From Candidatus Peribacteria bacterium (GTDB lineage: Bacteria > Patescibacteriota > Gracilibacteria > Peribacterales > Peribacteraceae): a stretch of 64,000 nt of DNA. The DNA lies in assembly GCA_028286915.1 (NCBI GenBank), contig JAQBQQ010000023.1:8005-72004 (forward strand). Direction: 5' to 3'. Below are positions 7,280-60,422 of the stretch, piece after piece (positions within the stretch are counted from its first letter, which is position 1; every line of letters begins with the position of its first letter). The position numbers were made by a program, and so were the translations under genes. The notes under the pieces were generated by a model. That model did no database searches. It was not told where the DNA came from and worked only from the letters and a program-made list of their open reading frames with translations.

Positions 7280-8095
7280 TTATGAGCCGAGTAGATTGCT
7301 CGCTCCTCTCCGAAAGGACGATTGGTTCTGTAGGATATTCAGACTCTCAATGCCCGGTACATCCACTACTTTTAAGCCGGCCAATAGAATTTCACGGTTT
7401 GATTCTATGGCAAGGCTGCGTCTGGCAGAAAGTGCCAGCAGGCTGTTGTAGATATTCAGCACGTCACGCAGGCGGGATACATCCGACTGTGTTTTATTCA
7501 GTGTGGCTGTTGCCTCGCTGCGATCACGTTGTAGTAGTCCGGTCGTGGCATAATCCTGCACACGCGTGGCATTGGATATTTGTCTGTTGATATCGCTGAG
7601 TGCTTTCTCGGCGGCGCGTCTGTCCAGTTCACGCGCATTTATGCCGGCCTGGATTTCTGCCACCTTCAGCTGGCTGCGTTTGGTAATATTTGCCAGGCCC
7701 GTCAGGTATTCATTGAGCGCTTTGGGTCTGTCGGGACTTCTGTTGAGTAGATCGGGAATATTTACCTGCAGCACGCTGCCGAATTCCTGGAGAAGTAAAA
7801 ATGCTTCATCAAGGTCATCGGGGCTTAAAGGTTTGACCAGTTTCATTTCCGCTATCACACCTGACAGTGCCGATGATACGCGGAAGAAGCCGCCTTGTGA
7901 CAGATAGATGCTGCTAAAAATACCCATGACGGCAGAGGGGCGGGAAGCTTCACTGCGCTGCGTCAGCAGGGACTGTGCGTACATGACACCTTCCGTGGCA
8001 GCCCGTACAGACAGGGTAGTTGTCGTTTTTGTACCGCACCCCGTAAGCAGAAGAATGCAGAGACAGGCCGGTAAGCATCGATTGAGTAGATTCAC
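7280..8095 (-). CDS. hypothetical lipoprotein
   Basis: Lipobox LLLTGC near the N-terminus, followed by a coiled-coil-rich sequence. First gene of the VirB4 operon. Confidence 0.6.
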   Translation of the reverse strand: MNLLNRCLPACLCILLLTGCGTKTTTTLSVRAATEGVMYAQSLLTQRSEASRPSAVMGIFSSIYLSQGGFFRVSSALSGVIAEMKLVKPLSPDDLDEAFLLLQEFGSVLQVNIPDLLNRSPDRPKALNEYLTGLANITKRSQLKVAEIQAGINARELDRRAAEKALSDINRQISNATRVQDYATTGLLQRDRSEATATLNKTQSDVSRLRDVLNIYNSLLALSARRSLAIESNREILLAGLKVVDVPGIESLNILQNQSSFRRGASNLLGS

Positions 8096-8349
8096 AATAT
8101 AGATTATTATACATCATTTTGTAATTTTTATCAACTATTACTAAAACGCATGATTGTCATTGTTTGTGACTGAATAAAGGTTTTGATGGTCTATTCTTGT
8201 TGGTGAACGTTTGTGCACACAAATTGTGCTCAAACATGATGAGTTGGCACGGGCAAGGTTAAATAGCGATATAAGATGTAAAAAATGCTTTTAAATGCTA
8301 TGTTGGCCATCGCACCTGAACACGACTTGTATTCAACCCGGTTTCTCTT

Positions 8350-10047
8350 ATGTTCGCATCTCTTTCACAGCAGGCAAAACGGCTTCTACAGGCAGAATTT
8401 CCGGACCTGGAAGTGGATGTGGCTTGGGAGCGCCCGTCCGCCCGTGACCACGGCGATTGTACGACAACCGTTGCCTTGCAGTTGGCAAAAAAAGTGGGCC
8501 GCTCCCCAAAAGAGATTGCCCAGTTTTTAGTCGACGGATTACAAAACATGCCCGATGTGGAGAATGTGGAATTGGCTGGCCCCGGTTATGTGAATGTCCG
8601 GCTCACCCTTCCCGCCTTGCTGAAAGAGTTGGAAGCGGCAATGAATGAGGCAAAGCCCAAAGAATCAAAGAAAGATGAAGGGCCGGTTATTATTGAGTAT
8701 TCTCAGCCGAATATTGCCAAGCCCCTGGGAGCGCACCATATTATAGGGACTGCCATTGGGCAGGCATTGGTGAATATATATCGTCATGCGGGTCATACGG
8801 TTATCGCATGGAATTATCTGGGAGATTACGGCACGCAGTTCGGTAAATTATCGGTAGCATTTTCCAAGTGGGGGACAAAGCCGGTTGAGCAATGTTCGGT
8901 TGATGACTTACTTGATTTGTACGTTAAATTTCACGAAGAGGCTGAGCAGGACAAGGCGCTTGAGGACTTGGGGCGGGCAGCTTCGCTTAGGCTTGAAGAA
9001 GGCGATGAGGAGCTACGGGCATTCTGGAAAAAAGTTGTCGCTATTACCAAGGAATCTTTGGGAGAATTATACAGGCGTCTGCACGTTTCTTTTGATCTGG
9101 ATTTGGGCGAGAGTTTTTATGAGGATAAAATGGTGCCGGTCATAGAAGAGGGGAAGGCAAAAGGTGTCTTTGTGGAGGGTGAGAAGGGATCACTCATCGT
9201 TCAATTTCCCAATGATCTCTACCCGCCCTATCTTATTCTGCGTGGAGACGGTGCCACATTGTATTCAACACGGGATTTGGCGCAGATGAAATACCGGATG
9301 GAAACATATCATCCGCAGGCTATTTTTATAGCCACTGACATTGCGCAGAAATTGCATTTCGAACAGCTTATTGAAACGTGTCGTATGCTTGGCTGGGAAC
9401 TGCCGGAGTTTGAAAATATTCTGTTTGGACGCATGAGATTTGTGGAAAAATCCATGAGTACCCGGAAGGGGAATATTCTTAAGCTGGAACACGTGCTTGA
9501 CGAAGCGGTGGAGAGGGCTCAAAAAGTAATTGCTGAGCGCGGTGACGCCATTCAGACGGATGAGCCGGCTGCACTGGCTGAAATGATGGGAGTTGGTGCG
9601 CTTGTGTACGGCATTTTAAGCCAGAACCGGAAAATGGATTTGGTGTTTGACTGGGAGAAAATGCTCAGTTTTGATGGCAACAGCGCGCCGTATTTGCAGT
9701 ACACGCACGCCCGCGCCAGATCGGTGCTGCGAAAGGCGGAACAGGAAGTGAGTGTGCAGGGTGTAACAGGTGTGACGGCAATGGCGCCGCATGACCGCCT
9801 GCTCGTGAATACTTTGCTGCAGTACCCGACGGCCTTACAGGAGGCATTGGACACGCGCATGCCGCATAAGCTGGCTAATTATTTGTATCAGCTGGCGCAG
9901 GATTTTAATGCATTTTATAACGCTGAAAGCATTTTACAGGCGGAGGAGTCCCTGAGAAAACTTCGTCTTGCTCTTACGCTTCTTACTGCCGATACATTAC
10001 GGGCGGGGACTGCCTTGCTGGCTATCCAGGTTCCCGACCGCATGTAA
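8350..10047 (+). CDS. argS: arginine--tRNA ligase
   Basis: 565 aa. Class I HIGH-type signature (GAHHIIG), MSTRKG (KMSKS-like), and a C-terminal DALR anticodon-binding region ending in M. Confidence 0.95.
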   Translation: MFASLSQQAKRLLQAEFPDLEVDVAWERPSARDHGDCTTTVALQLAKKVGRSPKEIAQFLVDGLQNMPDVENVELAGPGYVNVRLTLPALLKELEAAMNEAKPKESKKDEGPVIIEYSQPNIAKPLGAHHIIGTAIGQALVNIYRHAGHTVIAWNYLGDYGTQFGKLSVAFSKWGTKPVEQCSVDDLLDLYVKFHEEAEQDKALEDLGRAASLRLEEGDEELRAFWKKVVAITKESLGELYRRLHVSFDLDLGESFYEDKMVPVIEEGKAKGVFVEGEKGSLIVQFPNDLYPPYLILRGDGATLYSTRDLAQMKYRMETYHPQAIFIATDIAQKLHFEQLIETCRMLGWELPEFENILFGRMRFVEKSMSTRKGNILKLEHVLDEAVERAQKVIAERGDAIQTDEPAALAEMMGVGALVYGILSQNRKMDLVFDWEKMLSFDGNSAPYLQYTHARARSVLRKAEQEVSVQGVTGVTAMAPHDRLLVNTLLQYPTALQEALDTRMPHKLANYLYQLAQDFNAFYNAESILQAEESLRKLRLALTLLTADTLRAGTALLAIQVPDRM

Positions 10048-16182: not shown

Positions 16183-16983
16183 CTACGCTCTTGCCAGCCG
16201 TCTTTCATCATCTTCGGCGGTTTTCATAATAAGGAACCCGATTTCCTGTGCTTTTTCGCGGTGCACGCGGTGGCGGACGCCCGGGTAGAGGTGCAGGCGG
16301 CTGCCTTTTATTTTTTCCTGCATGATTTTTCCGTCACTTACGGGCGTCATCTGGTCATCTATGCCCCAGAAAATATCCGTTGGCACTTTAATTTTTTCCA
16401 GCAGGTGCTGTAAATCTTCCCGCGTTACAAGTATGAGTGTTTGCCGCATAACCGGGCTGGCCTTCTCGTAGTCATGCACGCGGACCAGTTTATACAGCAG
16501 TTTCTTGCCCAGCGGTTGCAGTTGGTCCAGGCCGGGAATAGACAGAAGAGCTTTGCCGGCTTTGGCTAGCGTAAGGCCAAAAATTCGTTTGGTATGACGC
16601 GAATGGTGAATGCCGGCCGCGGCACACAGGAATAAATGGTCCACCGGAAAGTTTTTCCTGGCAGCCAGCTTAATACTGATACGGCCGCCATGTGAATGAC
16701 CGAGCAGGTAGAACGGCCGCGTATTCATGGGCGCCCATAAATCCGGCGCATGTTCTTTGAGCCAGAGTTCCACCCAGTCGGCGTAATCATCAATAGTCCA
16801 TGGCTTCTTCGGGTCCGGTTCATTTCCAAAGCCGGGCAAATCCGGTATGAGGATTTCCACCTTGGTACTGCTGATGGCGTCCCGCAATTCTGCGAAAGAT
16901 TCCCTGGAGCCGCCCCAGCCGTGCAGGCAGAGGAGAATTGGTTTCATCTGCAGTAGTGTAGAATTGTTTACGCTTCGCGACAA
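16183..16983 (-). CDS. alpha/beta-fold hydrolase
   Basis: 266 aa. HGWGGS oxyanion region, nucleophile elbow GHSHGG, C-terminal His. The start may be the internal Met at 16947. Confidence 0.8.
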   Translation of the reverse strand: MSRSVNNSTLLQMKPILLCLHGWGGSRESFAELRDAISSTKVEILIPDLPGFGNEPDPKKPWTIDDYADWVELWLKEHAPDLWAPMNTRPFYLLGHSHGGRISIKLAARKNFPVDHLFLCAAAGIHHSRHTKRIFGLTLAKAGKALLSIPGLDQLQPLGKKLLYKLVRVHDYEKASPVMRQTLILVTREDLQHLLEKIKVPTDIFWGIDDQMTPVSDGKIMQEKIKGSRLHLYPGVRHRVHREKAQEIGFLIMKTAEDDERRLARA

Positions 16984-17255
16984 ATGGAGTTTTACCTAAC
17001 GCTTTCCATGAGTGTGGACTTGTAAATATCAGCTCAGCTTTTCTGATACTGAACGAAGGTGATAATGCGCCCGCCCGGCTCCGGTTGCCATATGCCACGG
17101 TTTTTGTGTGAACATTTTATGTGCAAAGGTCTGGCTAGGCTGGCAGCAGATGAACTCCTATATGCAATGCATTAGATCACGGAATATGCTTATGCCTATT
17201 ATATATTTTCATGCTTTTCTCTATGGTGTGCTTGTCTTTCTTTCCTTTTTTTGCC

Positions 17256-18545
17256 ATGAAACGTGTTGCCTTCCCGTTGGTATTTGTTCTCTGTCTGGTT
17301 GCCTGTATTACCTGGACGAATACGCCGGTTTTGGCACAAGGAACCGATACAACCAAGCCTGTCAGCACTGTGAATAACACATTGGGTGCCAGGCAGACTT
17401 CCCTTAGCTTTCCTGTATCCGTTACCGGGTCGGACCCCGGCAGTCCGTCATCTGGTGTCAGTTCCTACGATATTTATGTAGCCGTTGGCGCTGGTGCGTT
17501 TAATTACTGGACCACTGTTTCGGCAGGCAGCCCGAGTACCACTTTTACAGCCGTTTGTGGCGTGAATGCGAATAACAGCATTTTCTTCTATAGCATTGCT
17601 CATGACAATGCCGGCAATGTGGAAGTTCATACAACAGCGGAGGCTTCCACTTTTATGCCGGACTTCTGCCCTCCTGCGTCGACTATTTCCGCTATCAACA
17701 GTTCTTCGCCGGCATTTGCTCTTACATTTTCTGCCAGCGATTTTGAGAATGACATACGGACAGTGGATTTATATGCCGGTGTCGATGGTGCGGCAGCGCA
17801 GCAGGTCACGTTTTTCTATGCCAGCGGATCAGTGGTGAATAAAGTATTTAAGTATCCGGCTCTGGCCGATGGCGTCTCGCATACGTATTCCTTTTATACT
17901 ATTTCCAAAGATACCGCCGGGAACACCCAGCTAACCCCTGCCAGCGGGACGACAGTTACCGCCACATTTGCAACTGCAACCATTCGGCCGCTCGGCATTT
18001 CTATTAATAATGGCTTCGGGACTCGTTCTTATGTGCGTTATATTAAAATTCCGTTTACCAGCCAGCAAAATCTGGGTGCCATTGCCTCCCGCGTTCGCCT
18101 CACCAAATTTACTTTAGACGGAATGGGGGCCACTATTGTACCTATTTCCAGTTACGTTTCGCAGGCAGGCCAGTCTATTGTTATTGATTTCGGTGCGACC
18201 GACATGGGAGCTGCCGTGCCTGCCGGAGGAAGCATTACTTCCAGGTGGCAGCAGTTTATTGCCAGAGACGGCTATTTTCAATTGGCTATAGATACCCGGG
18301 GAAATGGCAGATACCAGACGGTTTATTATTTTCATCATTTACTTGGTGATGTAGACGGCAACGGACAGGTGACTCAAGCCGATCAGTCGTATATTACAAA
18401 AGCTCTGTCCCGCCCCGGATCGTTTGATTCTTCTGATGTGGATCTTAGTGGAGCTATCGACACAACTGATACGGCATTTTTGACTAAATCCAAAGGCCGC
18501 CTATTGTCTTCCAGCTTAAAGCTTACTGCGCCTGCTAATTGGTAA
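17256..18545 (+). CDS. secreted surface protein with C-terminal dockerin-like repeats
   Basis: ORF 17211..18545. Signal peptide MKRVAFPLVFVLCLVAC, Ig-like repetitive T/S-rich body, and C-terminal DVDGNGQVTQAD / DVDLSGAIDTTD calcium-binding dockerin-type repeats. Confidence 0.7.
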   Translation: MKRVAFPLVFVLCLVACITWTNTPVLAQGTDTTKPVSTVNNTLGARQTSLSFPVSVTGSDPGSPSSGVSSYDIYVAVGAGAFNYWTTVSAGSPSTTFTAVCGVNANNSIFFYSIAHDNAGNVEVHTTAEASTFMPDFCPPASTISAINSSSPAFALTFSASDFENDIRTVDLYAGVDGAAAQQVTFFYASGSVVNKVFKYPALADGVSHTYSFYTISKDTAGNTQLTPASGTTVTATFATATIRPLGISINNGFGTRSYVRYIKIPFTSQQNLGAIASRVRLTKFTLDGMGATIVPISSYVSQAGQSIVIDFGATDMGAAVPAGGSITSRWQQFIARDGYFQLAIDTRGNGRYQTVYYFHHLLGDVDGNGQVTQADQSYITKALSRPGSFDSSDVDLSGAIDTTDTAFLTKSKGRLLSSSLKLTAPANW

Positions 18546-18807
18546 TCGTTTGTGTAGTACGGCTTGTTCCAGACTAAATTGTCCATCAGTCCGCATTTAT
18601 ACGGCATCGTTTAATGTAATGACGATGCCACATGATTGCGCTGTGGTAGCTATGTAAAATAGCTTTGTTGCTAGGTGGCACGTACAATCGCCTCTGTTAT
18701 TTTGATTGTTTTGATCTTTTGGCTGCGCTATATGATCGCGCCATGTCAGCCACGTAAAACGGCTGCGCCGTCACGTGGCACGTATAATCTCACTGCGCGA
18801 TTTTACG

Positions 18808-18883
18808 TGGTGCCACGAGCCGGTTTTGAACCGGCGACCCCGGGCTTATGAGTCCCGTGCTCTACCAACTGAGCTATCGTGGC
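18808..18883 (-). tRNA. tRNA-Met or tRNA-Ile2 (anticodon CAT), CCA encoded
   Basis: The reverse complement folds as a cloverleaf: gccacga/tcgtggc acceptor, gctc/gagc D stem, anticodon loop ctCATaa, T arm gccgg-ttcaaaa-ccggc. G1:C72 argues against an initiator. There is an A31/G39 mismatch. Confidence 0.85.
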
Positions 18884-18903
18884 ATTATGTAAAGGTACAA
18901 CGT

Positions 18904-18963
18904 TTACCAACTGCTTGTTCGCCGTAGTCCGCCGGGGCGGACGAAGGTGGAAGCTATCGTGGC
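18904..18963 (-). pseudogene. 5' fragment of the tRNA-Met gene interrupted by a 39-nt hairpin insert
   Basis: Minus strand reads gccacgatagct-[39 nt]-cagttggta. This equals the first 21 nt of the adjacent tRNA split by an insert that contains the palindrome gtccgccggggcggac. Confidence 0.6.
18920..18951. repeat. GC hairpin element copy 1 (GTAG + palindrome)
   Basis: cgccGTAGtccgccggggcggacgaaggtgga. 7-bp palindrome arms. Confidence 0.7.
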
Positions 18964-19007
18964 ATGTATAAATGAATATCAGACCGATTCAGAATTGTGG
19001 GCCTGCC

Positions 19008-19039
19008 CGCCGAAGTCAGCCGCGGCTGACGCAGGTGGA
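19008..19039. repeat. GC hairpin element copy 2
   Basis: cgccgaagtcagccgcggctgacgcaggtgga. Same flanks as copy 1. The stem differs by one compensated pair (C:G to A:T). Confidence 0.7.
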
Positions 19040-19153
19040 CGCGTATTATGACCTATGAACCAACAGGAAAGAAGAGAATTTCTTATCCGTAAATATTTGC
19101 CGTTTATGGCAGTTTTCTCTACTCTATAGACGATTCCTCTATTCTTTGTCTTT

Positions 19154-19576
19154 ATGAAGCAAGCTGCGATTACATTCCTTTTGGCCACTACCCTGGTTCT
19201 GGGCGCTTGTTCGTCTAAAGCTCCGCCTGCGGACACTGTTCCGGTTCCGACGCCTGTAGTGGGCACATCCAGTGCGTCATCCGTTACTGCAGATTCTACG
19301 GTGCGCATTATTCCCATGACGGTGACGACATTCAAGTTTGAGCCGAATGCTGTGACCCTCAAGAAAGGGGAGAAAGTAAAAATCCGTATAACGGGTATCG
19401 AAGGTGTTCATGGCATAGGAGTGCCGGCCCTGGGTATAAATGTGCCGGTGAACCCGGGCGAAACCGTGGATATTGATGTGCCGACCGATACGGCCGGAAC
19501 CTACGAATTTTATTGCACCATTCCCTGTGGTCCTGGTCATGACAGTATGAAAGGGACTATCGTGATTGAGGCCTAA
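19154..19576 (+). CDS. cupredoxin-fold lipoprotein (copper-binding-like)
   Basis: Lipobox LVLGAC. The C-terminal YEFYCTIPCGPGHDSMKG resembles the Cys-His-Met ligand cluster of cupredoxin / CoxII-like domains. Confidence 0.7.
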   Translation: MKQAAITFLLATTLVLGACSSKAPPADTVPVPTPVVGTSSASSVTADSTVRIIPMTVTTFKFEPNAVTLKKGEKVKIRITGIEGVHGIGVPALGINVPVNPGETVDIDVPTDTAGTYEFYCTIPCGPGHDSMKGTIVIEA

Positions 19577-24198: not shown

Positions 24199-25479
24199 TT
24201 ACTGCTCAATATATTGCCTGAATTGCTCGCCTTTATCTTCGAAGTTTTTGAACATGTTATAGCTGGGCGAGGCTGTGGAAAGCAGGCACATTTTACCGGG
24301 TTTGGTGTTTGCTTTGGCGGCTTCTACGGCTGCCGGCATATCCTGTGCTTCATAAAAGCTGATGCCGATGCGGTGGGCGTCTTCAATGGCGCGCTTAATG
24401 CGGCTGCCTGTTTCCGGGAATAGAATGACATTGGCAATCATGGAATCGGCAACCATCTGGCCGAGGTCGCCAAAATCATAGCCGCGGTCCTGGCCGCCCA
24501 GAATAATAGTGTGCACTTTATTGCCCAGAGCTTTAAGGGCTGCCATGGTACTCTCCGGAGTGGTGGAAATGGCGTCATCCACCCATTCTATCCCGTGATG
24601 CATTCCCAGAAATTGCAGCCGGTGCGGCAGGCCTTCAAAATGTCTGATGGCCGCCAGAGTGATATCATCAGCAATATGAAGATGCTTTGCCACGGCACAG
24701 GCGCCGGCAATGTTGGATAAATTATGATCGCCCAGAAGTCTGGTTTCGTTTATGTGCAGCGGGGCATCTGCTCTGGAAAAAGGGATTTTCTGTCCGGCTG
24801 ATTGTCCCGCAATCTCCGTAGCTCCGCTGGAATCCTTATTATAAAAAACGATGTCATCGGGTGTCTGAAAACGGGTAATATGTTTCTTGGCCTCCATATA
24901 GGCTTCCAGCGAGCCATGGTAATCCAAATGCTCCGGGAAAAAGCTGGTAATGACGGCTATGTGCGGACTGGTGTGCAGGTCCATCAGTTGGTAGCTGCTC
25001 ATTTCCAGTACAAAGATTACCCCGGCATGGGCGTCGCCAATATGATCAATGGCGGGCAGACCGATATTTCCAACAAGGTGCACATCTTTGCCGGCTGCCT
25101 TAAGAACAGCGTAGATCAGGCTGCTGGTTGTGCTTTTTCCCTTGGAACCCGTAACGCCGATGGCGGCGGCACCCGTGTCTTTAGTGGAATCGAGGAAAAT
25201 TTGCGTGGAAGATGTGAGTTTTGAGTTTTGAGCTTTGAGTTCAGGGCCCGGAGGAATACCGGGAGATTTGATAATGACATCAAATTTCTCAAGGTTTTCC
25301 AGCCAACCGGTGCCGAGCTGTTTTGCGTATTGCTCCGGCACGGCAATGTTTTCATTTTTGTCGGCAACGGTTATTGTACAATCTGTACAATGCTTTTCAA
25401 TAGCCCGGAGCATGGCTTGTCCTTCTTTGCCAAAGCCCAGAATGCAGATTTTTTTGCGGGTCAGTTCTGTAATATGCAT
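24199..25479 (-). CDS. murD: UDP-N-acetylmuramoyl-L-alanine--glutamate ligase (MurD family)
   Basis: 426 aa. N-terminal Rossmann ILGFGKEGQA, P-loop GVTGSKGKSTTSS, and Mur ligase central and C-terminal domains. Confidence 0.9.
   Translation of the reverse strand: MHITELTRKKICILGFGKEGQAMLRAIEKHCTDCTITVADKNENIAVPEQYAKQLGTGWLENLEKFDVIIKSPGIPPGPELKAQNSKLTSSTQIFLDSTKDTGAAAIGVTGSKGKSTTSSLIYAVLKAAGKDVHLVGNIGLPAIDHIGDAHAGVIFVLEMSSYQLMDLHTSPHIAVITSFFPEHLDYHGSLEAYMEAKKHITRFQTPDDIVFYNKDSSGATEIAGQSAGQKIPFSRADAPLHINETRLLGDHNLSNIAGACAVAKHLHIADDITLAAIRHFEGLPHRLQFLGMHHGIEWVDDAISTTPESTMAALKALGNKVHTIILGGQDRGYDFGDLGQMVADSMIANVILFPETGSRIKRAIEDAHRIGISFYEAQDMPAAVEAAKANTKPGKMCLLSTASPSYNMFKNFEDKGEQFRQYIEQ
25214..25241. 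repeat. 4 x heptamer TTGAGYT inside murD coding sequence
   Basis: gtgagtt ttgagtt ttgagct ttgagtt, followed by cagggc. Encodes ELKAQNSKLT on the minus strand. Confidence 0.9.
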
Positions 25480-25481
25480 GG

Positions 25482-26966
25482 CTACAGAATAGCAGACTCG
25501 TACTTTTGCGGAATGGCATGATCGTCTGACGGTGTGAGTTCCTGCTCAATGAGCGCATGGACATCGGCAGGCAGACCTGTTTCCTCCAGTGCCATTTTCA
25601 TAACGGGTGTCTGCTCCCAGCCGCCGCGTTCGTGTGCCAGAATGAATGCCGACGCCGTTTCTTCCGGTGTACCCACGCACTCAAATGGCTTAAAGCCTTC
25701 CAGATCCAGTAACTGGCGGTACAGCGGAATAAGTGTTTCATCGTCGAAAAGATTTTTGCCGAACATAGTCACGAGCGTATCTTTTGGAAGGTACGCTGCC
25801 AGAAGTACAAAGACGAATGCGCATTTTGGACATTTGCCGCACCAGCCTCCGCGCTTTGGAGATTTTTTGCTGTCAGTCGAGGTTTGAGTATTTTCTGCTT
25901 TATCCGTATCTGCGCTCTGGCTGGCAGGCCAGGATTTTTCGAAGTTTTCTTTTAAGTATTTCCAGTTGGTATTACAGCTGGTGACATGTTCAAAGTATTG
26001 CGGGTATGTGCTGAAGAGCTTGGCGATAGCCAGTTCGCTGAGCGGCCGGAGCAGGCTGAAATACTGCACCTGCGTTTTGACGGTGGTTTCCAGGTAGTGC
26101 TGGAACATATGTTCGAATTCCAGGCCTTTGCTCCACTGGTGGTTAATATCTTTGCCCAAATACCAGACATTTCCTTCATTGGCGCTGCGCTCGTTGCTCA
26201 TGACAACGGATTCAAAGCCGTAGAGAATACTGAGGACAACGGTAACGGCGCTAAGGTATGCCGTAATCGGAACATGGCCGTTGAGCGCACCCTTGGCATT
26301 TAAATCAAACAGCGTTGGTGACAAATGGCGTTCGGCTGTGAGCATGGGAAGTTTGGCAATTTCGGCCAGCTTGTCGATAAACGGATGGCTGCCCATACGG
26401 AACAGGACAGGGTCAAACCCGGCTTTCTTTAGTAGTTCGATAGTCACCATGGAGTCTTTGCCGCCCCCGATGGGCACAAGAATCTGTTGATTGGTTGGTT
26501 CGTTTATTGGTTTATCGTTTGTACCTTGCTCACCGGAGAGCTTGCTCATACGTGCATTATTTTTTTCTACAATCCGCAGTTGTTCTTCTACGGACAGTAG
26601 GGGCTTGGTTGCCGATGGGAAATTGATGAGATCGGTAAAATCGATCTTATTCTGGTAGAAGAACTCGCCGAGACCGTTTTCGTACACGGTGTTCCAGAAT
26701 TTGGTTTCACGTTTGCTCAGGATGCCGGACCGTATTTCCATCTGTTTCGGCAGGCATGTTTTGTAGTAACTGATGCCGCCAATAAGGTGCAGCATAAAGA
26801 GTGCCCGTTCCAGTTCATCCGGGTCGTAGGCCACAAAGCCTACATGCGGCAGGATAATCTTCTCCGTAAACTTCACATGTCCGTCCAGGCTATAGTTTAA
26901 CTGAATCTCACCTTTGGCAGGCAGAAACACGTATGAATGGAAAATGAAGGTCTTAAAAGTGTCCAT
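25482..26966 (-). CDS. PP-loop (SGGxDS-like) ATP pyrophosphatase-superfamily protein, candidate MurL-like epimerase
   Basis: 494 aa. VPIGGGKDSMVT is a PP-loop-like motif, and there is a C-terminal CGKCPKC cysteine cluster. The stop lies 2 nt before the murD start. Confidence 0.6.
   Translation of the reverse strand: MDTFKTFIFHSYVFLPAKGEIQLNYSLDGHVKFTEKIILPHVGFVAYDPDELERALFMLHLIGGISYYKTCLPKQMEIRSGILSKRETKFWNTVYENGLGEFFYQNKIDFTDLINFPSATKPLLSVEEQLRIVEKNNARMSKLSGEQGTNDKPINEPTNQQILVPIGGGKDSMVTIELLKKAGFDPVLFRMGSHPFIDKLAEIAKLPMLTAERHLSPTLFDLNAKGALNGHVPITAYLSAVTVVLSILYGFESVVMSNERSANEGNVWYLGKDINHQWSKGLEFEHMFQHYLETTVKTQVQYFSLLRPLSELAIAKLFSTYPQYFEHVTSCNTNWKYLKENFEKSWPASQSADTDKAENTQTSTDSKKSPKRGGWCGKCPKCAFVFVLLAAYLPKDTLVTMFGKNLFDDETLIPLYRQLLDLEGFKPFECVGTPEETASAFILAHERGGWEQTPVMKMALEETGLPADVHALIEQELTPSDDHAIPQKYESAIL
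26486..26521. repeat. TTGGTT-family repeat inside coding sequence
   Basis: gttgattggttggttcgtttattggtttatcgtttg. Encodes TNDKPINEPTNQQ on the minus strand. Confidence 0.7.
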
Positions 26967-28163: not shown

Positions 28164-28297
28164 ATGGGATACTTCCATAAAGTCTTACCTAAACGCTCTA
28201 TCTGCGAGCGGAGTTTATCCTGAGCCGGGCCGAAGGGCCATCCCGGCACGGGAGATTCTCATAAAGTATTACCCAAATGTTCTATTTACGAGCGGAG
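28153..28297. repeat. 61-nt direct repeat x2 (period 84 nt) covering the tRNA-Leu 5' end and upstream region
   Basis: 28153-28213 and 28237-28297 match at 50 of 61 positions. Each copy starts (minus sense) with an upstream block and ends with gccgggatggc, the first 11 nt of tRNA-Leu. Confidence 0.85.
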
Positions 28298-28798: not shown

Positions 28799-28816
28799 GC
28801 GGCCAGGTACGGCCGC
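28799..28816. repeat. hairpin gcggcc-aggtac-ggccgc (3' flank of the Y1 transposase gene)
   Basis: Its reverse complement equals the 29408 hairpin except for one compensated base pair. Confidence 0.75.
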
Positions 28817-28822
28817 TCTGGT

Positions 28823-29230
28823 TTAGGGCAACGGATCAAGGGGCCATAATTTCCGTGCTGACGACCATGAATATTCAAAGGGCGTGTCGCATAATCCCTT
28901 TTTTACCGGATTCATATGAATATAGTTCAGTGTTGCATATAGATTATCAGGCAATGTCATATAAAACCGCGGTTGCCATAAGGTCATGAGTCCTACGGAA
29001 TGAGCCAGTCCGGATTTATATCGGTTCATGACCAGTGAAATGCGATGTGGTGATTGGATTTTTAATAAAAAGTGGCAGTGGTCAGGCATGATGACAAATC
29101 CATATAATGAAAAATGTTGTAAAGCCTGTACGCGATATAAGACATCTATAGCCTCGCGGGCGAACGCGGGATCAGTAAAAAACGGCTGTCTGTAGTTAAG
29201 TATTCGTGGTAATAAACATGACATGGCCAT
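28823..29230 (-). mobile_element. IS200/RAYT-like Y1 (HUH) transposase gene, short form
   Basis: 135 aa. HUH motif in VIMPDHCHFLL and the catalytic-Tyr motif LNYIHMNPVKKGL. The N-terminal region is shorter than in typical family members. Confidence 0.7.
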
Positions 29231-29317
29231 TTTGAATACGATGTCGTTGCGTCATGTTTCTATTGTTGATGACAGGCTTGTTGTTTTACATCTTGTTTTT
29301 ATTTTTCTTTTGGGTCG

Positions 29318-29335
29318 GCAGCCGGATATGGCTGC
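29318..29335. repeat. hairpin gcagcc-ggatat-ggctgc
   Basis: Same 6-bp stem as the 29408 hairpin with a different loop. Lies upstream of the Y1 transposase gene. Confidence 0.7.
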
Positions 29336-29407
29336 TATTAGCGGTGGAACCCGTTCCATGGTCCTGTGGAACCGATTATTTTATTTCGGTATAGTACCAC
29401 CCGCAGA

Positions 29408-29425
29408 GCAGCCGTACCTGGCTGC
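29408..29425. repeat. hairpin gcagcc-gtacct-ggctgc (5' flank of the Y1 transposase gene)
   Basis: Inverted counterpart of the 28799-28816 hairpin. Confidence 0.75.
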
Positions 29426-41980: not shown

Positions 41981-42079
41981 TTGGTGTGTAAAATATAGTA
42001 CGGCTTGCCCAACGAAGCCCAGAGGCGAATTTGGGAGCAGAAGGAGGGTACGAATGTTTGCCGGACAGGTCAATAGTTA

Positions 42080-47201: not shown

Positions 47202-47453
47202 TCAAATTGATTTTTTCTTCAAAAGCTCTATTTTCTGCGCCCGCGCCCATCGCTTTACCTCATATTCCCGTTTCCGCGCCTCGGATAATGTCTCATATTC
47301 TTCTGAATAAATAATCTTCACCGGCCGGCGGCTGCGGGTGTATTTGGCGCCCGTTCCATCATTGTGTTTTGCCTCTCTGGCCGCAAGATCCAGACATGTG
47401 CCGCTATAGAGCGTTTTGTCGCGGCAACGGGCGATATAAAAGAAATGAGGCAT
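47202..47453 (-). CDS. GIY-YIG nuclease-domain protein (YhbQ/UPF0213-like)
   Basis: 83 aa. FFYIARCRDKTLYSGTCLDLAAREAKHN...KYT...E..A...E..VK is a minimal GIY-YIG core. Confidence 0.8.
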   Translation of the reverse strand: MPHFFYIARCRDKTLYSGTCLDLAAREAKHNDGTGAKYTRSRRPVKIIYSEEYETLSEARKREYEVKRWARAQKIELLKKKSI

Positions 47454-59069: not shown

Positions 59070-59268
59070 ATCATTAGATTATAGCAGAAAATGATGATTT
59101 TTATAAGGTCGTGGGAGTTGCAAATATATAAAAATGTTATTTTATATATTTAATAAACTGGGGATCGCTTTCAAAACTGTCTGATGGCCTGCCATCCGTA
59201 GCTCTATCCTGTTAAAAAATAATCACATAACACAAAAATACATGTGAAATAACCCAAAGAGCGAAGAA

Positions 59269-59376
59269 TGGTGGGTAATACTGGATTCGAACCAGTGGCC
59301 TCCATCCGCCGCGGCGGATCAATGTGGCGCTCTAAACCCAAAGGGTCCCCTTCGGGGCAAACTAAGCTAATTACCC
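59269..59376 (-). ncRNA. tRNA-Val-derived tRNA-like element A (no anticodon loop), CCA encoded
   Basis: Acceptor stem, T arm, A73 and CCA are identical to tRNA-Val. The D loop is enlarged by ~22 nt. The anticodon arm is replaced by the 16-nt palindrome atccgccgcggcggat (59304-59319). It could equally be a pseudogene. Confidence 0.5.
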
Positions 59377-59415
59377 GGCGATGTAAATAATTGATAATTC
59401 CGATCTTATCTTAAT

Positions 59416-59480
59416 GGTAATACTGGATTCGAACCAGTGATCAGCCGTGGCTGACGGATCAATGTGGCGCTTTCTGAGCT
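59416..59480 (-). pseudogene. tRNA-like element B (3' part only), fused to the end of the GIY-YIG ORF
   Basis: Shares ggtaatactggattcgaaccagtg and atcaatgtggcgc with the other copies. Carries the palindrome tcagccgtggctga (59441-59454). Its 5' part is replaced by the ORF. Confidence 0.55.
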
Positions 59481-59713
59481 GTATTTCGAATAAATTCACG
59501 ACCTGCACCTGTCTTAAAGAATTTTTCTCGTATCATTGCTTCTCCTCGAGTTGAATAAACTTCTTTGTAGATTAATTTCCATGGTCCTCTAGTTTTTGTA
59601 TACGTTGATTTATTGTCCGGGCTATTGTGTTCTTCAATTCGTTTCTTTAAATCCTGTGTCTGACCTTTATATAAAACACCTTCGTTATTTTGAAGGATAT
59701 AGACGTAGTACAT
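59459..59713 (-). CDS. GIY-YIG nuclease-domain protein (YhbQ/UPF0213-like)
   Basis: ORF 59459..59770 with the start at MYYVYILQNNEGVLYKGQTQDLKKRIEEHN (GIY-YIG core). The start lies 12 nt after the tRNA-Val CCA. The last 6 codons overlap element B. Confidence 0.75.
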   Translation of the reverse strand: MYYVYILQNNEGVLYKGQTQDLKKRIEEHNSPDNKSTYTKTRGPWKLIYKEVYSTRGEAMIREKFFKTGAGREFIRNTAQKAPH

Positions 59714-59725
59714 GTTATAAAAAGA

Positions 59726-59802
59726 TGGTGGGTAATACTGGATTCGAACCAGTGACCTCCACAATGTCAATGTGGCGCTCTAACCAACTGAGCTAATTAC
59801 CC
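59726..59802 (-). tRNA. tRNA-Val (anticodon GAC), CCA encoded
   Basis: Cloverleaf gggtaat/attaccc, D arm gctc-agttggtta-gagc, anticodon arm ccaca-ttGACat-tgtgg, T arm actgg-ttcgaat-ccagt. Confidence 0.9.
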
Positions 59803-59840
59803 GGAGATGTAAATAATTGATAATTCCGATCTTATCCTAA

Positions 59841-59929
59841 TGGTAATACTGGATTCGAACCAGTGATCAGCCGCGGCTGACGGATCAATGTGGCGCTTTC
59901 CTCTTCGGGGCAAACTGAGCTAATTACCC
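59841..59929 (-). ncRNA. tRNA-like element D (type 2, no CCA, no anticodon loop)
   Basis: 5' acceptor and D-stem block and T arm match tRNA-Val. Carries the D-loop insert cctcttcgggg and the palindrome tcagccgcggctga (59867-59880). It could equally be a pseudogene. Confidence 0.45.
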
Positions 59930-60035
59930 GATTATAGTATAGGACTGATGCACAACTTCAGTCGGCCTAGACTAGCAAGTGTTGCAATCTGTCACAAGCC
60001 AGCTTTGTTCATTTGTTAGGCATGAGCATAGGCAG

Positions 60036-60068
60036 GAAAAAGTCGACCTTCCCACTGGGGGAAGGTCG
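60036..60068 (-). terminator. rho-independent terminator
   Basis: 10-bp stem cgaccttccc/gggaaggtcg, 5-nt loop. An A-run on the plus strand gives a T-run after the hairpin on the minus strand. Confidence 0.8.
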
Positions 60069-60080
60069 GGAGGATGCAGT

Positions 60081-60422
60081 TTAGTTGGCGAAGTAGTACT
60101 CCACCCACACTGCATCGGGCGTGTCTGATGGCGCCAGGGTGCCGTCCGTTTTTTTGCCCCGGACTTCCCATAGAAAGATGTTGCCTACTCGCTGGAACGG
60201 GTGCGAGTTGCCGTCCCATCTTTTCATTTCGGGAGGGCGAGAGCATTTGAGTGGATGCAGGATCCATGCAAATGTCGTCAGCCTTGCAGCTGACAGGAGT
60301 GCGTCCTCGGCTTCCTTGTTCAGCAGGCCAAGCCGGACGAGCTTGGCGATTTGTTCATGTGGTGCAAGCCTCTGGGAACCCTGGATGTTCACCCGCACCG
60401 CATCGCCGGTTAGGTCGGACAT
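60081..60422 (-). CDS. hypothetical protein, high-GC3 single-gene cassette
   Basis: 113 aa. AGGAG lies 9 nt upstream of the ATG. Codon use is visibly G/C-rich. It has its own terminator. No family recognised. Confidence 0.55.
   Translation of the reverse strand: MSDLTGDAVRVNIQGSQRLAPHEQIAKLVRLGLLNKEAEDALLSAARLTTFAWILHPLKCSRPPEMKRWDGNSHPFQRVGNIFLWEVRGKKTDGTLAPSDTPDAVWVEYYFAN

Follow-up and report, generated by a model that had tools for sequence, protein, structure and literature searches.

We describe here a short hairpin, element E, and its relation to the 5′ ends of tRNA and transfer-messenger RNA (tmRNA) genes, starting from a 64,000-nucleotide (nt) stretch of Candidatus Peribacteria DNA (assembly GCA_028286915.1, contig JAQBQQ010000023.1, positions 8,005 to 72,004; hereafter the window). 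Two strong copies of E lie beside a tRNA gene with anticodon CAT, one of them inside a split copy of the first bases of that gene, and E recurs in such dead tRNA and tmRNA 5′ copies across Peregrinibacteria and other uncultured lineages. The locus comprises the following features, where R1 is a covariance model of E:

18808-18883, minus strand: intact tRNA gene, anticodon CAT, encoded CCA (ARAGORN; Rfam RF00005, 67 bits)
18884-18904, minus strand: 21-nt spacer between the intact gene and the fragment, ending in tttacataat / cctttacataat, -10-like (sequence)
18905-18913, minus strand: copy of tRNA positions 13-21, CAGTTGGTA, the right flank of E (comparison with the intact gene)
18914-18951, minus strand: E copy 1, 38 nt (R1, 50.5 bits, E-value 2.8e-9)
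18952-18963, minus strand: copy of tRNA positions 1-12, GCCACGATAGCT, the left flank of E (sequence)
18964-18972, minus strand: -10-like motif tttatacat, directly upstream of the fragment (sequence)
19002-19039, minus strand: E copy 2, 38 nt (R1, 51.5 bits, E-value 1.6e-9)

ARAGORN and Rfam agreed on the tRNA-Met(CAT) that the initial annotation had placed here, which may possibly be an Ile2 gene instead. The split upstream copy of its first 21 nt was also recovered, as positions 1-12 and 13-21 around an insert, and the insert measured 38 nt rather than the annotated 39 once its boundaries were set via comparison with the intact gene. On the tRNA-sense strand, copy 1 reads TCCACC-TTC-GTCCGCC-CC-GGCGGAC-TAC-GGCGA-ACAAG and copy 2 reads TCCACC-TGC-GTCAGCC-GC-GGCTGAC-TTC-GGCGG-GCAGG; the GTAG-bearing strand of copy 1 is the plus strand. 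The predicted second copy of the insert was borne out by the pattern CGCCGWAG-N-GMAGGTGG, which matched exactly twice in the window and never in 100 shuffles, and the stems GTCCGCC/GGCGGAC and GTCAGCC/GGCTGAC contain the compensated change from C:G to A:T that had been noted. The 12-mer GCCACGATAGCT occurs in the window at the gene and the fragment only; with up to one mismatch allowed, two matches were reached in 4 of 100 shuffles. Below, we call a fragment with its hairpin a unit. In unit 1 (18884-18972), 21 of 21 tRNA-derived bases are identical to the gene, and the unit appears to be young. E copy 2, 88 nt away, has flanks without recognizable tRNA sequence, and unit 2 around it is probably older.

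To find further copies, we scanned the GTDB species representatives (one genome per species, 596 Gb) with a strict pattern, CGCCGNAGTNNNCCNNGGNNNACGNAGGTGG, that has 21 specified bases, and obtained 21 matches in 20 loci, where ~0.3 would be expected by chance (2 x 5.96e11 / 4^21). Nearly all matches came from metagenome-assembled genomes (MAGs) labeled Candidatus Peribacteria, Peribacteraceae or Peregrinibacteria, with 1 to 5 matches per MAG; the remaining labels were Komeilibacteria, Falkowbacteria, Elusimicrobiota and Patescibacteria group (one each) and “bacterium” MAGs (two). Taken with the names borne by homologues of a protein from the window, these labels put the window in Peregrinibacteriota. 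A looser pattern run over metagenome contigs gave at least 120 loci. Among the matches listed for species representatives and metagenomes together, 163 unique copies formed the working set, and all counts out of 163, 178 or 136 copies given below refer to the matches listed. An R1 scan of the window returned the two strong copies and one weak one; other Peribacteria sequence held one moderate and one weak copy in 82 kb, and none in a further 42 kb.

Read on the tRNA-sense strand, the copies have the consensus Y-CCNCC-TNC-G(8-26 nt stem-loop)C-TNC-GGNGG-R-CARG and a length of 30-45 nt (38 nt at the Met locus). Accordingly, an outer helix of 6 bp is separated by a symmetric 3x3 internal loop from an inner stem-loop that varies between copies (inner stem of 6-7 bp), and a 4-nt tail follows, with the sequence CARG on the tRNA-sense strand or CYTG on its complement. 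An inner stem of at least 4 bp was present in 98 of 178 regex matches. The internal loop reads TNC/TNC on the tRNA-sense strand and GNA/GNA on the other, giving GNAG 5′ of the inner stem. The GTAG that had been annotated directly 5′ of a palindrome is hence one form of GNAG (GTAG, GAAG, GGAG or GCAG), and it sits in the 3x3 internal loop rather than at a free 5′ end. Both helices covary strongly: Among 50 aligned distinct copies, paired cells made up 87%, compared to 71% in shuffles (observed value reached in 0 of 500), and sliding the 3′ partners by one to three columns reduced this to 34-46%. The outermost pair 1-37, which is free of any search-pattern constraint, was UA in 33 copies, CG in 16, UG in one and unpaired in none, and in the larger set it was T-A in 82 and C-G in 64 copies against 8 with T.G or C.A. 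The initial suggestion of selection on a hairpin is therefore upheld as constraint, or at least as maintenance of E as a hairpin.

Known RNA families did not account for E. An Rfam search with E-values up to 10 over 18400-19300 and 59100-60100 returned tRNA and chance hits only, and at the gathering threshold, 20 genome loci yielded rRNA, tRNA, tmRNA and RNase P only, with no family for E. In the full-text literature searched, which was also queried with the sequence strings themselves, we found no account of E or of its association with tRNA and tmRNA 5′ fragments. Small hairpin repeats shape the genomes of bacteria; for the candidate phyla radiation, we found none described.

The manner in which E is inserted could be read wherever an empty site was available for comparison, either the adjacent intact tRNA or tmRNA gene or, for an E nested in another, the outer copy. 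In fragments of tRNA-Met, Ile, Thr, Val, Asn, Lys, Ala, Trp and Asp, E lies between positions 12 and 13 (TAGCT/CAG, the slash marking the insertion point), and in Gln, Ser and tmRNA fragments it lies at positions 8-11. Bases were neither lost nor duplicated, and no target duplication was seen at 18 or more sites with a known empty site. Among the 163 unique copies, a left flank of GCT was seen in 42 and one of CT in 56, and the right flank was enriched in C-A/C-G. Ten copies of E were nested inside another; excising the inner copy restored a consensus outer copy, and in 8 of the 10 the inner copy directly followed the GCT of the outer copy's 3′ loop. Elsewhere, E interrupts a (TAATTCG)n heptamer array in phase (locus L020; loci are cited by such numbers where they need to be told apart). 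For tRNA-Val(TAC), a unit is present in L018 and absent from L012 and L058, while all three loci carry tRNA-Ile(TAT) 3-4 kb away. E is, in short, precisely inserted DNA without target duplication, with a preference for sites 3′ of GCT.

E also occurs in frame in two protein genes, a recG-like helicase (L101) and a leucyl-tRNA synthetase (LeuRS; L144). At 9485-9522 of L101, it lies within a 713-amino-acid (aa) recG-like open reading frame (ORF) and encodes HLRPPRADFGGQAS; in L144, a 30-nt short form at 19237-19266 encodes PTSAKATGGK. The latter gene (16516-19509, present in L143 and L145 as well) specifies a 997-aa LeuRS-type synthetase that has a mid-protein precomputed Pfam match to Y1_Tnp, a RAYT/IS200-like domain (RAYT, REP-associated tyrosine transposase; REP, repetitive extragenic palindrome).

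E is closely tied to RNA genes. When the 250 nt upstream of each tRNA or tmRNA gene were considered, 22 of the 163 unique copies fell there in the same orientation as the gene, where ~0.9 would be expected from 36 such genes over 787 kb. Same-strand copies downstream of a gene were absent, and six copies lay on the other strand. E is hence linked to tRNA and tmRNA 5′ ends strongly and on one side only. Of the 25 strict Peribacteria-type copies, 11 were placed upstream in this way, as were both window copies, whereas 123 of 136 metagenome copies were away from any called tRNA or tmRNA gene. Within the window, every strong or candidate E copy is upstream of a tRNA. Units stand at three or four of its five tRNAs, including, besides the Met locus, these two:

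28219-28247, minus strand: unit upstream of tRNA-Leu(CAA), consisting of a copy of tRNA positions 1-11 (28247-28237) and then the mini-hairpin ccttcggcccggctcagg (28236-28219)
42004-42035, minus strand: weak short-form E-like candidate, 24-55 nt upstream of tRNA-Ile (R1, 13.7 bits, E-value 0.34)

The unit at tRNA-Leu is preceded by a second, ~80% identical copy of a 50-nt leader, and a mini-insert similar to its hairpin lies upstream of tRNA-Ile in L018. The tRNA-Ile candidate of the window reads CCCAAA-TTC-GCC-tctg-GGC-TTC-GTTGGG-CAAG, with a left flank ending in gct. Units can be repeated in tandem (three in L003; two each in L022, L058 and the window), and in the arrays of L003, L022 and L058, the spacers can be near-identical while the hairpin interiors differ. 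A unit at tRNA-Ile(TAT) was found in three different genomes; no unit was present at tRNA-Lys of the window, at His in L144, at Gln in L146 or at Val in L012 and L058. Fragments range from identity with the gene to differences at two or three acceptor positions (L008, L061, L077 and L049), from which it follows that fragments decay.

With this census, the question of whether the Met locus holds an element or mere local duplication debris, left by a one-off rearrangement, could be settled. The presence of only two strong copies in the window, 88 nt apart, and of a frameshift in its RAYT gene (see below) would suit debris, and we still give that idea hardly any credence: E is found in many genomes, and the same element in the same arrangement occurs at 18 or more other tRNA and tmRNA loci of genomes and metagenomes, which refutes it. 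Nor do the interrupted copies look like a disrupted yet working tRNA, be it a split half or an intron-containing gene that is spliced. Non-canonical introns are known at D-arm positions in archaea, and the defined site of E at tRNA position 12/13 would fit such a scheme. E-bearing copies, however, break off near position 20, so that the anticodon arm, the T arm and the 3′ acceptor strand are all missing, and each copy is followed by an intact gene for its tRNA; bulge-helix-bulge geometry is absent, and Rfam found no tRNA across the units. Where an intron or a split tRNA calls for an otherwise complete gene, or a matching half, with a functional product, the fragments offer none of these, and we attach practically no probability to this explanation.

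The fragments themselves have a sharp boundary. Across 17 loci, positions 1-7 of fragment and gene were 91% identical, compared to 36% for positions -12 to -1, and the excess identity reached only to about -4. Every 5′ fragment that we found carries an insert (14 of 14). TANNNT boxes ending at -9 to -12 occurred upstream of the fragment in 9 of 17 loci and upstream of the intact gene in 7 of 17, where they were weaker; in six loci, the fragment alone had one. The commoner and better boxes upstream of the fragment suggest that, in many of these loci, transcription of the tRNA runs through the unit, which would form a leader, and that the repeated block begins near the transcription start. At the Met locus, a scan with the canonical sigma-70 consensus found no full promoter at the repeated -10-like motifs or at the spacer motif, so that of the “promoter-like” motifs annotated there, the -10-like part stands and the full promoter does not. 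The minimum-free-energy fold of leader and tRNA-Met together (18808-18975; -58.4 kcal/mol, z = -3.05) has GCCACGA of the fragment pairing with the 3′ acceptor strand of the tRNA and displacing the genuine 5′ end.

These properties raise the main alternative to the reading that we favor below, namely that the unit is of use to the host. Fragment and hairpin could be a selected part of the tRNA or tmRNA leader, with the distal -10 box driving a long precursor in which the unit might modulate folding, RNase P processing or stability; alternatively, the unit might insulate the gene or act as an occupied decoy against further insertion. The conserved acceptor positions next to 12 nt at background identity, the distribution of TANNNT boxes with probable transcription through the unit, the precursor fold of tRNA-Met, the units at most tRNAs of the window and the recurrent tRNA-Ile(TAT) unit all speak for such a role. 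We nonetheless consider it rather unlikely. E is also found nested in itself, in simple repeats and in frame within the recG-like and LeuRS genes, and the large majority of metagenome copies are away from called tRNA and tmRNA genes. Distance to the gene, number of units and hairpin interior vary freely, several fragments have decayed and many tRNAs have no unit. In addition, the hairpin is less stable on the transcribed, tRNA-sense strand in 50 of 50 copies, which is partly an ascertainment effect, as discussed below.

We favor, with moderate confidence, a reading in which E belongs with REPs as a small DNA hairpin that is mobile but non-autonomous. In this reading, E would travel as single-stranded DNA, most likely with a Y1 HUH tyrosine transposase of the RAYT type acting in trans, and would insert precisely, directly 3′ of GCT, leaving its target unduplicated. 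The near-universal TAGCT/CAG of the tRNA D-arm, and an equivalent spot 8-13 nt into tmRNA, would serve as target. A hit in a functional gene would be lethal in small genomes with single-copy tRNA genes, and because of this lethality the surviving copies would be those in redundant 5′ fragments, which span about -4 to +20 of the gene and lie 15-60 nt upstream of the intact copy. There, E and fragment would join the upstream region or leader of the gene and subsequently decay. The fragments may thus be accounted for by survivorship.

A candidate enzyme of this type is encoded in the window, together with hairpins on both sides of it:

28823-29256, minus strand: RAYT gene, frameshifted (Pfam PF01797, NCBIfam NF047646)
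28799-28816: hairpin GCGGCC-GTACCT-GGCCGC, directly after the RAYT stop (sequence)
29318-29425: two hairpins upstream of RAYT, GCAGCC-ATATCC-GGCTGC (29318-29335) and GCAGCC-AGGTAC-GGCTGC (29408-29425)

The ORF at 28823-29230 (minus strand) matched Y1_Tnp (PF01797) at 37.8 bits (cut-off 23). With NF047646, its long frame alone scored 74.3 bits, and joining the two frames raised this to 84.2 bits over profile positions 3-146 of 146 (cut-off 80), so that the protein, with its Y1 HUH fold, rises above the threshold of the RAYT family once the frames are joined. The HUH motif reads DHCHF and the tyrosine motif LNYIHMNPV. More than 200 homologues at 50-60% identity were retrieved, whose named sources say Peribacteria, Peregrinibacteria or “RayT”; the exact protein of the window was not among the database homologue matches. 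The hairpin at 29408-29425 is inverted relative to that at 28799-28816, with a compensated stem change, and hairpins of the same class accompany the RAYT homologues of L144, L146, L151, L152 and L153.

Further support comes from the likeness of E to known REPs. The RAYT of Escherichia coli requires GTAG plus a hairpin and transfers strands, and A3 and G4 of the GTAG specify cleavage at a CT dinucleotide that is possibly distant from the hairpin (PMC3479197). Compared with E. coli REPs, E likewise has the A and G of GNAG fixed, and its target ends in CT. The constancy of G1, A3 and G4 in GNAG is, however, partly imposed by the search patterns, and the motif has its last G paired and lies enclosed instead of at a terminus. 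For REPs of the GTAG type, locations inside small palindromes and in-frame positions in genes have been described, as has reiteration together with flanking DNA (PMC3733652). Like those of the GTAG superfamily (Nunvar 2010, PMC2817692; Messing 2012, PMC3479197; Di Nocera 2013, PMC3733652), E is a GC-rich imperfect palindrome of 20-40 nt that can form a stem-loop. It shares with REPs the compensatory stem variants, the absence of target duplication and the CT-ending target, as well as its occurrence within small palindromes, in tandem with flanking DNA and occasionally in frame inside genes; its genome also has a RAYT gene flanked by inverted hairpins. On the other hand, E has an additional outer helix of 6 bp that closes off the GNAG within an internal loop, and it carries a 4-nt tail. 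Window copies of E have the same orientation and do not form the inverted pairs known as bacterial interspersed mosaic elements (BIMEs) or REP doublets forming hairpins (REPINs); inverted E pairs were found at a few metagenome loci only (L041 and L049). A strong, oriented link with tRNA and tmRNA 5′ fragments also sets E apart from REPs in the literature searched.

Several observations weigh against our reading. The RAYT of the window is frameshifted after its first 19 codons, with a stop (TAA) of the first frame at ~29199, and could be a pseudogene or reflect a sequencing error. In the REP paradigm, the cognate repeats are those that flank the RAYT gene, and here the flank hairpins are of another class. 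At nine RAYT loci examined (the window, L144, L146, L148, L150, L151, L152, L153 and L101), E adjoins the gene in none, which speaks against E as the cognate REP of RAYT; the flanks instead held other classes, such as GCRGCC-loop-GGCYGC hairpins, GCACCC-CTTCGC-GGGTGC hairpins or, in L148, a classical GTAG-CGCAGGTC repeat. Over 735 kb of E-bearing loci, no transposase or other protein family recurs near E, and an all-against-all clustering of 3362 ORFs from 142 loci gave no family in more than five loci. E is low-copy in the sequence scanned, in contrast to REPs, which typically number more than 100, or hundreds, per genome. Folding was more stable for the strand opposite the tRNA-sense one in all 50 copies under RNA parameters and in 46 of the 50 under DNA parameters, an asymmetry to which we give limited weight because the search patterns fixed the T/C positions of the loop as well as a CCACC/GGCGG mismatch. 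In 54 copies that were not pattern-forced, pair 4-34 is usually Watson-Crick, and a conserved G.T wobble at this place, once considered as proof of the active strand, was dropped. Compensatory changes in a DNA palindrome can also arise via template-switch correction, without selection. Finally, survivorship leaves unexplained why the homology starts so sharply at about -4 and why all 14 fragments carry an insert.

Because the flank hairpins differ, E is low-copy and its GNAG lies in an internal loop, it is by inference that we assign E to the REPs and its mobilization to the RAYT of the window; E could be served by another enzyme or be largely fossil here. The REP/RAYT lead in the initial annotation gains real weight from the RAYT that the window encodes between inverted hairpins, which are of another class than E.

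In E, two helices separated by an unpaired 3x3 spacer are topped by a terminal part of variable length (8-26 nt), much as in integron attC sites, which suggests a different kind of single-strand substrate: a folded recombination site for a tyrosine recombinase or other nuclease, with tandem units as cassette-like products. The tandem units of L003, L022 and L058, with their near-identical spacers and different hairpin interiors, would fit this, as would the fact that E flanks none of the RAYT genes examined. We hold it to be very unlikely, given that no integrase or recombinase recurs near E, that E has no attC-like R-box (GTTRRRY) and that the units hold locus-specific tRNA sequence rather than cargo; nesting after GCT and the lack of target duplication suit HUH single-strand chemistry at least equally well.

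Other mobile elements offer partial parallels. E resembles IS200/IS605 elements and palindrome-associated transposable elements (PATEs) in having a hairpin on one strand, an insertion site 3′ of a short, unduplicated target and an orientation fixed to the target strand. Those elements differ from E in carrying two different subterminal hairpins and in using a tetra- or pentanucleotide target that pairs to a guide sequence, whereas E has a single hairpin and no IS200/IS605 TnpA or TnpB nearby. Nor is E a miniature inverted-repeat transposable element, for which terminal inverted repeats matching an insertion sequence and a target duplication are expected: none of its 18 or more sites shows a duplication. 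RNA genes are also invaded by Rickettsia palindromic elements (RPEs). Both RPEs and E are short palindromic repeats of small genomes that enter essential genes where an insertion is tolerated, in-frame insertions in proteins included (PMC3733652); RPEs differ in being ~100-150 nt long, in belonging to another sequence family (CGTC-type, PMC3733652) and in lying inside functional genes rather than in duplicated dead fragments. Partial tRNA or tmRNA copies near an intact gene also arise as by-products of mobile DNA when phage or island integrases leave scars. Integrase scars, however, are 3′ parts that lie kilobases of element away and result from attP x attB recombination, whereas E units derive from the 5′ end of the gene (about -4 to +20), lie tens of bases upstream of it and hold a 38-nt element.

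How the 5′ fragments originate is a separate question. A 5′ fragment left by tandem duplication must lie upstream of the intact copy, which would produce the one-sidedness, and an insertion would stabilize an otherwise unstable short tandem repeat, which may explain the insert in all 14 fragments. Plain tandem duplication of promoter and 5′ end with uniform decay was rejected: The upstream similarity exceeded the cross-locus background in only 6 of 18 loci, and the homology stops at about -4. Candidate origins include a transcript-templated or bubble-limited repair patch, cut-and-paste of E with its flanks by RAYT, gene conversion, and selection on the fragment. A speculative version, which we regard as improbable, is that the fragments are scars of a repair pathway, in which the gene was patched from its transcript or from the promoter-proximal bubble, rather than chance duplications. 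E would hit a functional tRNA gene at 12/13, and its hairpin would provoke a break near position 20; the first ~24 nt would then be recopied, with either a primary tRNA transcript free of the insertion or the single-stranded bubble near the promoter as template, and the rebuilt piece would be rejoined through a short filler. Such a process would explain why the block starts sharply at the transcription start site predicted by the -10 boxes, ~4 nt before the mature 5′ end, why it ends near position 20 and is followed by a 15-60-nt spacer without relative, and why a strong -10 box is often found at the fragment only and an insert in every fragment. If true, it would represent a natural, recurrent transcript-templated patch repair of essential RNA genes in bacteria.

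Downstream of tRNA-Met, the locus contains additional repeats of a different kind:

18675-18789, minus strand: two more -10-like plus GCCAC pieces, gattgtacgtGCCAC with the GCCAC 5′ end at ~18679 and gattatacgtGCCAC with the GCCAC 5′ end at ~18779
18749-18779, minus strand: acceptor-stem minihelix GCCACGT-gacggcgcagccgtttt-ACGTGGC, downstream of the tRNA (sequence; inverted repeats)

The motif GTGGCAYGTAYAA occurs exactly three times within 300 nt (18675, 18775 and 18959; 0.29 expected at one mismatch or fewer), and only 5-6 nt of each occurrence derive from the tRNA. The minihelix, which is headed by one of the two downstream occurrences, is what remains of a gutted tRNA-Met copy; its pair 7:66 has switched on both sides, from A:T to T:A. 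The array of promoter-plus-5′-fragment pieces that had been annotated around the tRNA thus holds for the upstream unit, whose architecture recurs elsewhere, and fails for the two downstream pieces. The Logan short-read contig L001 (SRR13312974), apparently from the same organism, breaks at ~19037, at E copy 2 and 117 nt upstream of a cupredoxin gene, consistent with E acting as a repeat in the assembly graph. Among the neighbors of the locus, a 444-aa flanking protein had no database record, and the cupredoxin homologues were distant and on short contigs.

Some copies of E are associated with further hairpins. A metagenome subfamily with a 23-nt interior always lies within the same flank hairpin, tgtCCGGCTtc-E-cAGCCGGAcc (L024, L034, L039, L053, L070, L082, L104, L130, L131, L134 and L141); this may recall the REPs “inserted within small palindromes” of Thermomicrobium roseum or be part of a larger conserved structure. 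A perfect palindrome, ACCTGCCTGC-CG-GCAGGCAGGT, resembles two E tails head to head and was found ~75 nt upstream of a RAYT gene (L144, 9906-9929) and as the left flank adjoining an E copy at 1453-1488 of L049. In L101, a RAYT-like gene (7860-8429; NF047646, 49.9 bits) lies 1 kb from the in-frame E and is flanked by palindromes of its own, of the AACCTGGTTA type.

A second tRNA of the window is surrounded by degenerate copies in another manner:

59272-59935, minus strand: tRNA-Val(GAC) array, with the intact gene at 59726-59802 and three degenerate copies (Rfam tRNA)

In the degenerate copies, the D-loop and/or the anticodon arm is replaced or interrupted by GC hairpins (TCAGCCGCGGCTGA, TCCGCCGCGGCGGA and GCCCCGAAGGGG), which are the same inner hairpins as in E; the core TCAGCCGCGGCTGA does recur at 59867-59880, as initially annotated, inside one of these copies. 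Another, at 59272-59376, is a 105-nt, full-length tRNA-like sequence with CCA (Rfam tRNA, 41.3 bits) and inserts of 28 and 20 nt. Between the tRNA-Val copies lies a small GIY-YIG ORF (59459-59713, minus strand; Pfam PF01541, 61.7 bits), whose last eight codons and stop run into a 5′-truncated tRNA-Val copy, as if inserted in its D-arm. A second small GIY-YIG ORF (47202-47453, minus strand; 54.6 bits), 39% identical to the first, is divergent from tRNA-Lys(CTT) and ~95 nt upstream of it. GIY-YIG proteins were ruled out as a part of E, since tblastn found none near E in any other locus. At 24199-26966 (minus strand), precomputed Pfam matches (L001) place a Mur ligase gene next to a MurL gene (N-terminal and epimerase domains), a pair that resembles the alternative MurD2/MurL route to D-glutamate in peptidoglycan.

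On the practical side, pseudo-tRNA fragments of this kind can confuse tRNA callers and break assemblies, and for biochemistry, a compact RAYT family is available along with defined DNA substrates. For the biology of these bacteria, E would be a selfish element drawn to the best-conserved part of each tRNA gene, in genomes whose tRNA genes are single-copy. The compromise that we observed, in which E occupies a dead 5′ copy and the live gene follows shortly downstream, recurs at many tRNA and tmRNA genes in several lineages. Such decoy fragments may protect the gene, and their abrupt boundary, which resembles that of a transcript, hints at the mechanism by which they form.

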